A DNA stretch of 32,000 bases from assembly GCF_000007985.2 (NCBI RefSeq), contig NC_002939.5, positions 1,080,001 to 1,112,000 on the forward strand, given 5' to 3'. Positions 1,533-21,587 of this stretch are shown piece after piece. This DNA comes from Geobacter sulfurreducens PCA. GTDB taxonomy: Bacteria; Desulfobacterota; Desulfuromonadia; Geobacterales; Geobacteraceae. The notes under the pieces were generated by a model that saw only the letters and a program-made list of their open reading frames with translations, searched no databases and was not told the origin of the DNA. Position 1 is the first letter of the stretch. Each line of letters starts with the position of its first letter. A program made the position numbers and the translations under genes.

Positions 1533-1680
1533 TCGTTGATACACGACAATACTAAACCATCCGCGAGGGTGGGACGGAAAGCCCACAGGGTCTCTCTGAG
1601 ACAGCCGGGATGCCGAAATGTCAGCACGACGACGTTCGGCCCCGGCTTGCTCTTTATCCGGTGCCGGAAGGAGACGAGCC

Positions 1681-2064
1681 ATGGGAGTTTCTCGGGAGTG
1701 TTGTCGCAGATGGGGCAAGGCCGTTGTTGCGCAGGTTGTACTGTTCGTCGTTGCCGTTGTGGCGATACCGGCGCTGGCGGACTCAATCCCCGCTTACCTC
1801 GCATCGGCCACCAGCCATGATTCTCCGGCTATAGTTTCTCCTCCTCCCGCTTCACCCGCCTCCCAATCGGAAAATGCCACCTTTTTCAGCATATCAGCCA
1901 GCCCAACCGGCGATGTGACGCTCAACTGCGGCGGTGTTCCCGTTGAAATCGGCTACACGGATCTCGCCCCCCATGACGAAATCCGGGAGCAGAGCCAGCG
2001 GATAACGCGGCAACAGGACCCGCTCATCAACGGGTTTTCGGTCAAGGTAACCTTCCTCTTTTAA
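1681..2064 (+). CDS. small secreted or envelope protein (127 aa) of unknown function
   Basis: Internal ATG at 1681 with AAGGAGA 8 nt upstream. Signal-peptide-like N-terminus (VVLFVVAVVAIPALA/DS) and a C-terminal ...VKVTFLF. A strong intrinsic terminator follows. The 1618 start proposed by the ORF track lacks an RBS. Confidence 0.5.
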   Translation: MGVSRECCRRWGKAVVAQVVLFVVAVVAIPALADSIPAYLASATSHDSPAIVSPPPASPASQSENATFFSISASPTGDVTLNCGGVPVEIGYTDLAPHDEIREQSQRITRQQDPLINGFSVKVTFLF

Positions 2065-18812: not shown

Positions 18813-19370
18813 ATGTCCGTAACTCTCGATGAAATCAAACAAGTCTACCAAGAGGCCGACTGTCTCTTTTCCGAAGCAGAGGTGGAGGCCGCCATCGGCC
18901 GGCTTGCCACCGCGGTCACCGAACGTCTGGCCGAGGCCAATCCCCTGGTCTTCTGCGTCATGAACGGCGGGCTCATCGTCACCGGCAAGCTGCTGCCCCG
19001 GCTCGGATTCCCCCTGGAGATCGAATACCTGCACGCCACGCGCTATGGGCACCACATCTTCGGCAAATCCCTCGACTGGCGGGTGCGTCCCACTGTGGAC
19101 CTGAGAGGACGGACGGTACTGATTGTGGATGACATACTGGACGAGGGGGCGACGCTCGACGCCATTACCGAATGGTGCCTGCAGGAGGGGGCGGCGAAGG
19201 TCTTCACCGCCGTGCTCGTGGACAAGGAGCATGACCGGAAGGCCCGGCCGGGGTTGAAGGCCGACTTCACGGGGCTTGTGTCCCCGGACCGGTTCCTCTT
19301 CGGCTACGGAATGGATTACAAGGGATACTGGCGCAACGCGCCGGGGATCTATGCGGTGAAGGGGTATTAG
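18813..19370 (+). CDS. hpt: hypoxanthine/guanine phosphoribosyltransferase family protein
   Basis: PRPP-binding loop VLIVDDILDEGATL. The 185-aa size fits a type I PRTase. I chose the ATG at 18813 over the longer ORF. Confidence 0.75.
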   Translation: MSVTLDEIKQVYQEADCLFSEAEVEAAIGRLATAVTERLAEANPLVFCVMNGGLIVTGKLLPRLGFPLEIEYLHATRYGHHIFGKSLDWRVRPTVDLRGRTVLIVDDILDEGATLDAITEWCLQEGAAKVFTAVLVDKEHDRKARPGLKADFTGLVSPDRFLFGYGMDYKGYWRNAPGIYAVKGY

Positions 19371-19427: not shown

Positions 19428-19979
19428 TTAGGGCTGCTTCCATACGTAGGTTTTGCTGATGCTTGCGGCGGCCTGGTCGGTGGAAATCTCGGCTCCCGAG
19501 ACGTCCAGCACTCGGTAGCTCAGGACCTTGAAGTCCGCGTTGCTGACATTCTGTGTGGTCGTGTTGTAGTTCGGCACGAATCCCGGCTTGAAGTCGAACC
19601 AGAGCGAGCCGAACGTCCCGAACTTGACCCCGTAGGGGTTGACGAGCAGGAACTTCACGGTGTCGCCCACACTGGGATCCGTCGAGGGGGTCAGGGCGGA
19701 AGAGACGAGCGTGCCGGTGTTCAGCATACTGTTGTCCACCATGACGACCGTTGCCGGATCGAGGAAGTACTTGCCCGGGGTGAGCGGGTCCAGTTTTGGC
19801 GTGATCCCCACGGGGAGCTGCAGCACGACTTCGAGGCCGTAGAATTCCGTGGGTGCCGGTTTGATGACCGTGCCGGTAAGAGCCGTTGCAGTGGTTGCAA
19901 GAACCACCTGCAACGGTTGGGCAAGGGCCGATGCCGATGCCGCGAAAAGGATAACGAGACTCAGTACTGCCGCTTTCAT
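19428..19979 (-). CDS. secreted protein of unknown function (183 aa; Sec signal peptide, no Cys and no heme motif)
   Basis: AAGGAGG SD before the ATG at 19979. Signal peptide MKAAVLSLVILFAASASALA/QP. The mature part is rich in Thr, Val and Pro and looks beta-rich. It lies directly downstream of the riboswitch-terminator. Confidence 0.8.
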   Translation of the reverse strand: MKAAVLSLVILFAASASALAQPLQVVLATTATALTGTVIKPAPTEFYGLEVVLQLPVGITPKLDPLTPGKYFLDPATVVMVDNSMLNTGTLVSSALTPSTDPSVGDTVKFLLVNPYGVKFGTFGSLWFDFKPGFVPNYNTTTQNVSNADFKVLSYRVLDVSGAEISTDQAAASISKTYVWKQP

Positions 19980-20012
19980 GGTTCCTCCTTCGTGTGTGTG
20001 GTGGGTGCGGGC

Positions 20013-20058
20013 AAAAAAAAAGAAACAGCCTGCCCCTGTGGGACGCGGTACTGTTTCT
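20013..20058 (-). terminator. intrinsic terminator forming the riboswitch expression platform (AGAAACAG...CUGUUUCU followed by U8)
   Basis: Minus-strand reading is gaagaaacag-[22 nt with an inner GUCCC/GGGGC stem]-ctgtttct-tttttttt. It ends 33 nt before the ATG at 19979. Confidence 0.75.
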
Positions 20059-20144
20059 TCGCCAACCCGGCTGTCCCGCTGTTTCAGGCGGGACCCGCAG
20101 CTTTGTGCCCCCCGGTTACCCGGGGTTTACCTCTTCGAAAACAG
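20051..20144 (-). ncRNA. GEMM-I cyclic-dinucleotide riboswitch aptamer (c-di-GMP or 3',3'-cGAMP class)
   Basis: Minus-strand RNA: CUGUUUUCGAAGAGGUAAACC-CCCCGG-GUAA-CCGGGG-GGCACAAAGCUGCGG-GUCCCGC-CUGAAACA-GCGGGAC-AGCCGGGUUGGCGAAGAAACAG. It aligns with the Vc2/GEMM-I core (GGCAAACC, a GNRA-capped hairpin, GGGACGCAAAGCC, a second hairpin, CGGGGUUACC). Confidence 0.75.
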
Positions 20145-20201
20145 TGCGTAACGGATTACGGACCTTTTGAGCAATTCTAGCCCGTGGCAGCACAGTTTTG
20201 C

Positions 20202-20217
20202 TGTGAGCGGCGTCACA
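20202..20217. promoter_or_regulatory. perfect CRP-family operator, TGTGA-gcggcg-TCACA
   Basis: The only perfect TGTGA-N6-TCACA I found in the window. Its centre (20209.5) is about 42 bp upstream of the TSS predicted from the minus-strand TAGAAT at 20179..20174. Confidence 0.5.
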
Positions 20218-20285
20218 GAACAAGGGGCTGCCCCCTGGTACCCTGAGCGCCGTCCGAAACTCATATCCATTTTTCTGAGGCGTCC

Positions 20286-21587
20286 ATGAAACATTTTTTT
20301 CAGTTCGAGCGCTACAACACCACCTACCGCAAGGAGACGGTGGCGGGCATTACCACCTTCCTGACCATGGCGTACATCATCATCGTCAATCCCGCCATCC
20401 TCGAGGCGGCGGGGATTCCGCGGGGCCCCTCCACAACGGCCACCATCGTGGCCGCGGTCTTCGGCACGGTAGTGATGGCGTTGTACGCCAACCGCCCCTT
20501 TGCCATTGCTCCGTACATGAGCGAGAACGCCTTTATCGCCTTCACCGTGGTCAAGGTGCTGGGATATTCATGGCAGACAGCCCTGGGAGCGGTCTTCGTG
20601 GCGGGCGTACTGTTCACGGTCCTGACCGTTTTCAAAGTGCGGAGCTGGCTGGCCGAGGCGATCCCGCTCTCGCTCAAATGCGCTTTTGCCGTCGGTATTG
20701 GACTGTTTCTCACCTTCATCGGCCTGAACGAAACCGGTCTCGTTACCCTCGGCGTGCCGGGGGCGCCGGTCAAGATGGGTAACATCGCCTCTCCGTCGGT
20801 GCTTCTGGCGGTCTTCGGCTACCTCCTCACTGTCTTTCTCATGACGCGCAAGATTCACGGGGCCATTGTGATCGGCATCGTCGCCACCACCGTCCTGTCG
20901 GTGGCCTGCGGGGTGACGCCCATGCCGACCGAATTCGTGAGCATGCCGCCGGATCTCTCGCCGATCCTGTTTCAGCTCAACATCGGTGATGCCCTCGACA
21001 TCCGCTTCTTCCCCGTGGTCCTCACCATCTTCATAATGGCGTTCCTCGATACGGTGGGCACCCTCATCGGCCTCTCCATGCGGGCCGATCTGCTGGATGA
21101 GAAGGGGAACCTGCCGGAGATCGAGAAACCGATGCTGGCCGATGCCCTTGCCACCACCGTGGCGCCGTTGCTGGGCACCACTACTACCGGCGCCTACATC
21201 GAATCGGCCACCGGCATCGAAGAAGGGGGGCGCACCGGCTTCACGGCACTGGTGGTGGCGGGGCTCTTCCTGATGTCCCTCTTTTTCGCGCCGCTGTTCA
21301 CCATTGTGCCTCCCCATGCTTACGGTATCGCCCTCATCGTGATCGGTTCCTTCATGATCGAGCCGCTCCGCCGGATCGACTTCGAGGACTTCACCGAGCT
21401 GGTTCCCGCTTTCCTTACCATCGTGCTGATGATTTTCACCTACAACATCGGCGTCGGCATGAGCACGGGGCTGCTTACCTATCCCCTCCTCAAGACCGCC
21501 GCCGGCAAGAGACACCAGGTCTCTGCTGGTATGTGGGTCCTGGCGGGGCTTGCGGTGCTGCTGTTCGTCTTTTTCCCCAAGATGTAA
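20286..21587 (+). CDS. NCS2/AzgA-family purine (adenine/guanine/hypoxanthine) permease
   Basis: 433 aa. The N-terminus FQFERYNTTYRKETVAGITTFLTMAYIIIVNP is typical of the AzgA/PbuG family. About 12 TM segments. Confidence 0.85.
   Translation: MKHFFQFERYNTTYRKETVAGITTFLTMAYIIIVNPAILEAAGIPRGPSTTATIVAAVFGTVVMALYANRPFAIAPYMSENAFIAFTVVKVLGYSWQTALGAVFVAGVLFTVLTVFKVRSWLAEAIPLSLKCAFAVGIGLFLTFIGLNETGLVTLGVPGAPVKMGNIASPSVLLAVFGYLLTVFLMTRKIHGAIVIGIVATTVLSVACGVTPMPTEFVSMPPDLSPILFQLNIGDALDIRFFPVVLTIFIMAFLDTVGTLIGLSMRADLLDEKGNLPEIEKPMLADALATTVAPLLGTTTTGAYIESATGIEEGGRTGFTALVVAGLFLMSLFFAPLFTIVPPHAYGIALIVIGSFMIEPLRRIDFEDFTELVPAFLTIVLMIFTYNIGVGMSTGLLTYPLLKTAAGKRHQVSAGMWVLAGLAVLLFVFFPKM

Follow-up and report, generated by a model that had tools for sequence, protein, structure and literature searches.

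A GEMM-I riboswitch with an atypical ligand pocket upstream of GSU1018 in Geobacter sulfurreducens

GEMM-I riboswitches are usually assigned a ligand on the basis of a single nucleotide, position 20 in the numbering of the Vc2 aptamer, where A points to cGAMP (3',3'-cyclic GMP-AMP) and G to cyclic diguanylate (c-di-GMP); the role of this position and the definition of the cGAMP-selective subclass GEMM-Ib have been described (PMC6140456). The first C of a conserved 'gCC' motif forms a Watson–Crick pair with the beta guanine of the ligand, as seen for Vc2 C92, Cd1 C87 (from the C87A and C88A mutants) and Gs1761 C75, and in Gs1761 the residue list of the structure gives G8:C76 as the adjacent pair of the closing helix P1. 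For the cGAMP riboswitches of Geobacter pgcA and pilM, the ON logic considered here has been established experimentally. For the riboswitch considered here, the class, the ON mechanism and the assignment to the cGAMP regulon, through which extracellular electron transfer is controlled in Geobacter, were published between 2015 and 2019, and 12 of the 17 G. sulfurreducens GEMM-I RNAs are reported to bind cGAMP in vitro. The present work concerns an element at 20013..20144 on the minus strand of a 32,000-nucleotide stretch of the G. sulfurreducens PCA genome (NC_002939.5, positions 1,080,001 to 1,112,000), referred to here as the window, whose numbering is used throughout unless genome coordinates are named. 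This element is the annotated riboswitch GSUR3004, one of 17 annotated GEMM-I riboswitches in G. sulfurreducens PCA. It is best explained, with a probability of roughly 80%, as a transcriptional ON switch which is predicted to work under kinetic control and to be activated by cGAMP in cells.

The identity of the locus was settled by comparison with the RNA sequencing (RNA-seq) table of Hallberg et al. 2019 (PMC6456294, supplementary file 1), in which GSU1018 is found at 1103115..1103666 on the minus strand. The same supplement places pbuG (GSU1019) at 1103973..1105274 and the end of GSU1017 at 1103057. Window position equals published genome coordinate minus 1083687, a fit which is exact for GSU1017, GSU1018, GSU1019, GSU1001, GSUR3003 and GSUR3004. 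The published span of GSUR3004, genome 1103737..1103831, corresponds to window 20050..20144 and contains the aptamer match described below (20058..20141); it covers the same locus as the present element but ends at P1, without the 3' arm of the terminator (20050..20013). The sequence of the downstream open reading frame is identical to AAR34345.1 of G. sulfurreducens PCA. Since the gene coordinates, the identical protein and the riboswitch span all coincide, the element can be equated with GSUR3004 upstream of GSU1018. The initial annotation, made from the sequence alone, had allowed that this copy might already be catalogued, and so it is: its entry in the genome annotation, under the label 'cyclic diguanylate-responsive riboswitch' (PMC6456294 supplement), its membership of the 17 and its expression response have all been published. 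A literature text search under the names Gs1018 and GSUR3004 returned nothing relevant.

The whole window was scanned with cmscan against the 4227 families of Rfam 15, and the minus strand between 19700 and 20500 was also read directly. RF01051 (c-di-GMP-I/GEMM-I) is matched at 20058..20141 on the minus strand with a score of 63.0 bits, the gathering score being 35 and the E-value 2.9e-10, in an alignment which spans model positions 1-87 of 87 and in which not one non-canonical pair is flagged. The features of the two-hairpin junction are all aligned, namely the GUAA loop, the AAA bulge, the CACAAAG junction and the bulged P3. A GEMM-I-fold aptamer is thus confirmed at the curated Rfam threshold, far beyond what chance would give, in agreement with the class proposed by the initial annotation, which had suggested this covariance search; the minus-strand elements listed there are also all present in the sequence where they had been placed. 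It might be supposed that the resemblance is fortuitous and that no structured RNA is formed, given the G+C-rich context and a whole-leader fold z-score of only -1.87. The E-value over the full model, conservation upstream of every orthologue, and the published annotation and expression response reduce this supposition to a negligible probability. The aptamer is made up of the following parts.

20058..20141, minus strand: GEMM-I aptamer (RF01051), located by cmscan.
20136..20144, minus strand: 5' strand of P1, CUGUUUUCG, pairing with 20061..20051 and invariant in all orthologues.
20132..20135, minus strand: junction strand J1/2, AAGA, four nucleotides (alignment and table of 48 aptamers).
20131, minus strand: G at the position of Vc2 G20 and Gs1761 A14, the specificity nucleotide of the alpha site (RF01051 model position 11).
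20105..20130, minus strand: P2, with G:C and U:A pairs, an AAA bulge, a six-base-pair stem CCCCGG/CCGGGG and a GUAA tetraloop (cmscan).
Within 20130..20105, minus strand: leading segment of P2, GGUAAACC, followed by the six-base-pair GUAA-capped hairpin (direct reading of the sequence).
20104, minus strand: first A of CAAAG, equivalent to the intercalating Vc2 A47 and Gs1761 A41 (model position 38).
Minus strand: core GGCACAAAGC (direct reading).
20064..20102, minus strand: P3, a bulged hairpin GUCCCGC/GCGGGAC (cmscan and direct reading).
20062, minus strand: G occupying the column of the C which pairs with the ligand (Vc2 C92, Gs1761 C75, Cd1 C87), a mismatch at RF01051 model position 83.
Minus strand: tail CCGGGUUGG (direct reading).

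The equivalent of Vc2 A47 was mapped by an offset of 9 from Vc2 numbering, in agreement with the residue lists of Gs1761. From the alignment and the table of 48 aptamers introduced below, J1/2 is typically AAAG or AAAU in those G20-type aptamers which are closest to GSUR3004, and NNAAU in GEMM-Ib. The 11-nucleotide tetraloop receptor of P3, a feature of 'type 1' members whose loops are GRRA, is not present, model positions CUAA and uAu being deleted in the cmscan alignment. According to the original description of the motif, GEMM members with GYRA loops commonly lack this receptor. As this is the loop type found here (GUAA/GCAA), the missing receptor does not exclude membership of RF01051.

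The regulatory logic lies in the region between aptamer and gene, where one sequence is shared by two mutually exclusive structures.

20051..20061, minus strand: switching sequence CGAAGAAACAG, both the 3' strand of P1 and the 5' arm of the terminator (from the sequence and from structure evaluations), invariant in orthologues.
20013..20060, minus strand: intrinsic terminator, with outer stem GAAGAAACAG/CUGUUUCUUU, inner stem CC..GUCCC-ACA-GGGGC.GG and a U tract extending to 20013.
19984..19990, minus strand: AAGGAGG ribosome-binding site of GSU1018.
19428..19979, minus strand: GSU1018, 183 amino acids with an N-terminal signal peptide, matching AAR34345.1 and the published table.

The terminator hairpin, AGAAACAG...CUGUUUCU (20060..20019), is followed by U9 and has a folding energy of -19.6 kcal/mol (RNAfold). 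It was not listed by a simple terminator scan with a loop limit of 3-8 nucleotides, which its loop exceeds. Evaluation of defined structures gives -33.3 kcal/mol for P2 and P3 together and -37.0 kcal/mol when a seven-base-pair P1 is added, so that P1 contributes only about -3.7 kcal/mol. Because the terminator 5' arm (20060..20051) contains the whole 3' strand of P1, the two cannot coexist; the terminator competes for this strand only and leaves P2 and P3 intact. Folded to minimum free energy, the aptamer-length transcript forms the seven outer pairs of P1. In minimum-free-energy snapshots of progressively longer transcripts which begin at 20167, the inferred start, the same seven pairs are found for 3' ends 20045..20029, and the terminator replaces P1 from 20023 onward. 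In the full-length ensemble the outer pair of the terminator has a probability of 0.985 and P1 one of approximately 0. The ON-type logic of the initial annotation, in which the 3' strand of P1 lies inside the terminator 5' arm, is upheld by this exchange between 3' ends 20029 and 20023.

These folds suggest the following course of events. Transcription probably starts near 20167, and the aptamer, consisting of P2, P3 and the closing helix P1, would be complete once 20051 has been transcribed. Binding of a cyclic dinucleotide at the three-helix junction within the next 25-30 nucleotides or so would hold P1 shut and keep CGAAGAAACAG from the terminator, allowing RNA polymerase to read through into GSU1018. 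Without ligand, the far more stable terminator hairpin and its U9 would displace P1, and transcription would stop near 20013. The default state is accordingly predicted to be termination, and this, together with the need for ligand capture within about 25-30 nucleotides, is what points to kinetic control of the switch.

The activating ligand in cells would be 3',3'-cGAMP produced by GacA, a view which rests on published RNA-seq of the wild type (WT), delta-esnD and delta-gacA strains (PMC6456294 supplement). GacA is the cGAMP synthase, whilst EsnD is a diguanylate cyclase, and in its absence c-di-GMP falls and cGAMP rises; the c-di-GMP level was reported unchanged in delta-gacA. Expression values are given in the order WT / delta-esnD / delta-gacA.

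GSU1018: 294 / 533 / 55; log2 delta-gacA/WT -2.42; log2 delta-esnD/WT +0.86 (PMC6456294).
GSUR3004: 106 / 275 / 26; log2 delta-gacA/WT -2.03; log2 delta-esnD/WT +1.38 (PMC6456294).

Riboswitch and gene share an approximately 4-5-fold drop in the absence of GacA and an increase upon deletion of EsnD (PMC6456294), and by these literature data expression of GSU1018 has the character of GEMM-Ib control, being dependent on GacA and not following c-di-GMP. All 17 GEMM-I elements appear on the 'cGAMP regulon' sheet of the supplement (PMC6456294), so it is the expression numbers, and not the listing itself, which discriminate. An ON switch for c-di-GMP should fall in delta-esnD and ignore delta-gacA. 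The opposite was seen, which makes a response of GSUR3004 to cGAMP in cells the best reading, with this copy presumably binding cGAMP directly.

Several points weigh against a cGAMP-activated ON switch. Position 20 is G and not the A which marks cGAMP-selective GEMM-Ib, and G also fills the column that belongs to the C which pairs with the ligand. The orthologues are few and close, giving minimal covariation support. Finally, the ratio of gene to riboswitch reads for GSU1018 is near constant across the three strains (2.8 / 1.9 / 2.1 in WT / delta-esnD / delta-gacA), so that the effect of GacA could arise at the promoter. These points are taken up in turn.

The identity of position 20 is what a classical c-di-GMP-sensing GEMM-I ON switch would lead one to expect. 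The initial annotation had read this position as G from an alignment it regarded as ambiguous; its reading was right, and the placement is in fact unambiguous, with G20131 falling at model position 11 in the cmscan alignment, where the AAA anchors it on one side and the P2 hairpin on the other. All orthologues have G here as well. The first pair of P2 is G:C, which together with G20 is Vc2-like, the 5' half and P1 are near-identical to those of G20-type aptamers from unrelated phyla (L066, L038 and L022), and the genome annotation reads 'cyclic diguanylate-responsive'. Set against this are the rise in delta-esnD and the 4-5-fold fall in delta-gacA, where c-di-GMP was reported unchanged, as well as the replacement by G of the C to which the beta guanine is paired in Vc2, Cd1 and Gs1761. 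Furthermore, the omcS riboswitch GSUR3014, the only one reported to be dual-specific, changes by only -0.5 log2 in delta-gacA compared with -2.0 for GSUR3004 (PMC6456294). A c-di-GMP sensor at this locus is therefore considered very unlikely.

The G in the ligand-pairing column sets GSUR3004 and its orthologues apart from the other aptamers sampled. The conserved 'gCC' after P3 reads GGC (20063..20061) in the cmscan alignment, and G20062 is conserved in all orthologues. A genome collection was scanned with the pattern GAYAGCCGGGNNGSCGAA and the hits were parsed by regular expression, giving 48 genuine aptamers whose sources include Geobacterales and numerous other phyla; C occupies the C92 position in every one of these other sampled aptamers (48/48). 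A metagenome scan for GGCGAA yielded at least 120 stretches, none with a GEMM-I 5' half among the matches listed, although a contig known to carry an orthologue was not among them either and absence is thus not shown. The aptamers which GSUR3004 resembles are of the G20 type and come from Zixibacteria (L066), 'Bacterium BMS3Bbin05' (L038) and a planctomycete (L022). In a gap-free alignment GSUR3004 reads CUGUUUU-CG-AAGA-G-GU...UUG-G-CG-AA-GAAACAG and L066 reads UGUUUC-CG-AAAU-G-GU...UUG-C-CG-AA-GAGACAG, and the sole difference between the 3' junction strand of GSUR3004 and those of L066 and L038 is in the C92 column. By homology, G20062 would occupy this column and G20136:C20061 would form the top pair of P1. 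The P1 drawn in the initial annotation included G20136:C20061 and so implied a G in the C92 column, on which it did not remark. The reading as a one-nucleotide insertion, in which C20061 would be the C92 equivalent and J3/1 would be GG, is structurally possible, albeit less parsimonious than a substitution in a gap-free alignment.

With G in the C92 column, direct binding of a cyclic dinucleotide by GSUR3004 is not self-evident. One speculative proposal, which must be regarded as rather doubtful, is that GSUR3004 and its orthologues recognise cGAMP in the orientation opposite to that in GEMM-Ib, G20131 reading the alpha guanine, as in Vc2, and G20062 reading the beta adenine through a G-A pair. 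It would accord with the G placed in the pocket column by gap-free homology, with the conservation of that G in all orthologues and its absence from the 48 other aptamers, and with a gene which follows cGAMP and not c-di-GMP in cells. Were this so, selectivity for cGAMP would have arisen from a c-di-GMP aptamer a second time, independently and by another route. The data would be accounted for equally well if the register were shifted by one nucleotide, with C20061 as the partner of the ligand.

The orthologous loci which could be compared come from other genomes of the G. sulfurreducens group and from a lineage in which the protein is only 46% identical. They were reached through contigs encoding homologous proteins; a protein-guided scan of genome contigs for relatives of GSU1018 found none. 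An RF01051 match is present at the same place upstream of the gene in every orthologue locus with enough upstream sequence, including the lineage with 46% identity. Across orthologues P1, the junction strands, the switching sequence, the outer stem of the terminator and the U tract are invariant; divergence is seen in the promoter region, in the loop of the terminator and in the leader downstream. Two of the diverged orthologues (L008 and L003) have a different sequence in the inner stem of the terminator, which still folds at -18.8 and -21.4 kcal/mol, respectively. Since P1 and the terminator are both invariant, covariation is uninformative for either. Elsewhere there is one compensatory change, C:G to U:A in P2 (pair 23/36) in the 46%-identity lineage, and three one-sided pair changes, all in P3, where 95% of cells are paired in the orthologue alignment. 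In the orthologue alignment, 97.8% of cells are paired, as against 37-50% in slid controls.

The near-constant read ratio brings in the promoter, the putative elements of which are as follows.

20174..20217, minus strand: putative promoter, comprising a palindrome at 20202..20217 and a TAGAAT -10-like hexamer at 20174..20179.

The palindrome, TGTGA-CGCCGC-TCACA, is a perfect CRP/FNR-type site and the only match in the window. It lies about 30 nucleotides upstream of TAGAAT and is centred about 42 nucleotides upstream of the inferred start, a class-II-like geometry. The orthologue loci of the 46%-identity lineage keep it in the form TGTGG-N6-TCACA amid otherwise diverged DNA. This suggests that an activator acts on the putative promoter of the riboswitch. 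No sigma-70 consensus was picked up here by a simple promoter scan, and the proposed promoter is built only on the -10-like hexamer and the palindrome. A G+C-rich terminator-like hairpin, AGGGGGCAGCCCCU, is located just upstream of the palindrome at 20223..20236 on the minus strand; there is no minus-strand gene upstream of it, the neighbouring pbuG diverging on the plus strand.

It is conceivable on these grounds that the aptamer no longer binds a ligand, owing to the change in the C92 column, and that dependence on cGAMP is imposed at the promoter, for example by the CRP/FNR-type palindrome or by the XRE regulator GSU2033, with the leader acting as a fixed attenuator. The position and retention of the palindrome would suit such an arrangement, as would the ratio of gene to riboswitch, which is nearly constant in WT, delta-esnD and delta-gacA, and GSU2033 is a riboswitch-controlled transcription factor within the cGAMP regulon (PMC6456294). 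The ratio for pgcA (GSU1761), computed from the published values, falls about 4.5-fold in delta-gacA. Between WT and delta-gacA, GSU1018 shares its constant ratio with GSU1247, GSU1556 and GSU1945b, whilst a 3.5-4.5-fold drop is seen for pgcA, GSU1001 and GSU1060. The riboswitches of GSU1247, GSU1556 and GSU1945b are nonetheless accepted cGAMP riboswitches; loss of a terminated RNA of about 155 nucleotides from the library, or its degradation, could also produce the constant ratio. For the set of loci as a whole, either short terminated RNAs go missing at some of them or a share of the cGAMP response is exerted ahead of the terminator. A dead aptamer would moreover not be expected to show an aptamer, P1 and terminator which are almost invariant down to 46% protein identity amid diverged flanks, nor the compensatory change in P2. 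A terminator of -19.6 kcal/mol with U9 and a probability of 0.985 should also silence the gene in the absence of antitermination, yet GSU1018 reaches 294 in WT. Control at the promoter with an inert leader is judged unlikely, and a riboswitch that responds to cGAMP is preferred.

The function of the regulated gene was given as unknown in the initial annotation and this is still so, the family being tiny and no Pfam or NCBIfam family being matched by the GSU1018 protein. Among 1.84 billion representative proteins there are 8 hits at E <= 1e-3, and of these two long ones (P0016 and P0018) resemble repeat or low-complexity matches. From 9 sequences AlphaFold gave a moderately confident model (predicted local distance difference test 68, predicted template-modelling score 0.65), an all-beta sandwich whose best Protein Data Bank (PDB) matches are cohesin modules, albeit weak ones (best E = 3e-4, template-modelling score 0.39-0.55). 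This is a hint only that GSU1018 may have a cohesin-like fold; a secreted surface protein of this type would be in keeping with a regulon that is linked to surface-associated growth.

GSU1018 is flanked by two purine-salvage genes, both on the plus strand: GSU1017 (18813..19370), encoding hypoxanthine-guanine phosphoribosyltransferase, and pbuG, GSU1019 (20286..21587), encoding a hypoxanthine/guanine permease. This flanking is kept in the loci of the G. sulfurreducens group and not in the 46%-identity lineage. Neither GSU1017 nor GSU1019 responds to delta-gacA (PMC6456294).

The window holds a second RF01051 match, at 1541..1617 on the plus strand (42.8 bits), which is GSUR3003, upstream of GSU1001 (gene at 1681..2064, plus strand). 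A at the equivalent of position 20, C:G and U-G at the base of P2, and GCCGAA mark it as a typical GEMM-Ib. Downstream of it lies the hairpin AGCCGGG...CCCCGGCU, whose U tract is interrupted. In the order used above, expression of GSUR3003/GSU1001 is 81 / 281 / 11 (PMC6456294).

The interest of GSUR3004 is that it breaks both single-nucleotide rules of GEMM-I specificity, with G instead of A at position 20 and G instead of C in the C92 column, and yet behaves as a cGAMP-dependent switch in vivo. Should it bind cGAMP directly, position 20 alone would be no reliable guide to specificity, and its pocket would be a case of a beta site reprogrammed in nature.

The classical c-di-GMP-I riboswitches, represented by Vc2 of Vibrio cholerae, Cd1 of Clostridioides difficile and the aptamers L066 and L038, have the RF01051 fold, G20, a GNRA-capped P2 and CAAAG in common with GSUR3004, and the P1 form GUUUC-CG...CG-AA-GAAAC is near-identical in L038, L066 and GSUR3004. 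They keep the ligand-pairing C, by contrast with the G of GSUR3004, and the response of GSUR3004 in vivo is the opposite of that expected of a c-di-GMP sensor (published RNA-seq). L038 (2873..3075, plus strand), a G20-type GEMM-I, has a separate terminator further downstream, GAGCCUGUUUUCC...GGAAACAGGCUC with U7 after it, and the 5' arm of this hairpin is complementary to the 3' strand of P1. L038 thus appears, from its sequence, to be wired as an OFF switch out of the same sequence modules as GSUR3004.

The GEMM-Ib riboswitches of Geobacter, Gs1761 of pgcA (PDB 4YAZ) and Gm0970 of pilM, belong to the same fold family and are, like GSUR3004, transcriptional ON switches with an intrinsic terminator. 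Geobacter GEMM-Ib and GSUR3004 are also alike in organism, in regulon and in their expression, which is down in delta-gacA and up in delta-esnD. In the table of 48 aptamers a typical Geobacter GEMM-Ib sequence reads GAUAAU-A-CU-AAA...GAC-GG-AAAG...GCCGAA-AUAUC. The pockets differ: in GEMM-Ib, position 20 is A, the pair adjoining the pocket is a wobble (in pilM, U15-G38), J1/2 is NNAAU and C is kept at C92, whereas GSUR3004 has G at position 20, an adjoining G:C pair, AAGA as J1/2 and G in the C92 column. The terminators differ as well: that of GEMM-Ib invades the 3' strand of P3 and sequesters the C92 equivalent, while that of GSUR3004 competes for the 3' strand of P1 alone. Given that the A20 hallmark is not borne out and that the canonical C92 is missing, GSUR3004 is filed here as a riboswitch of the GEMM-I fold with cGAMP-dependent behaviour, rather than as a GEMM-Ib defined by its sequence.

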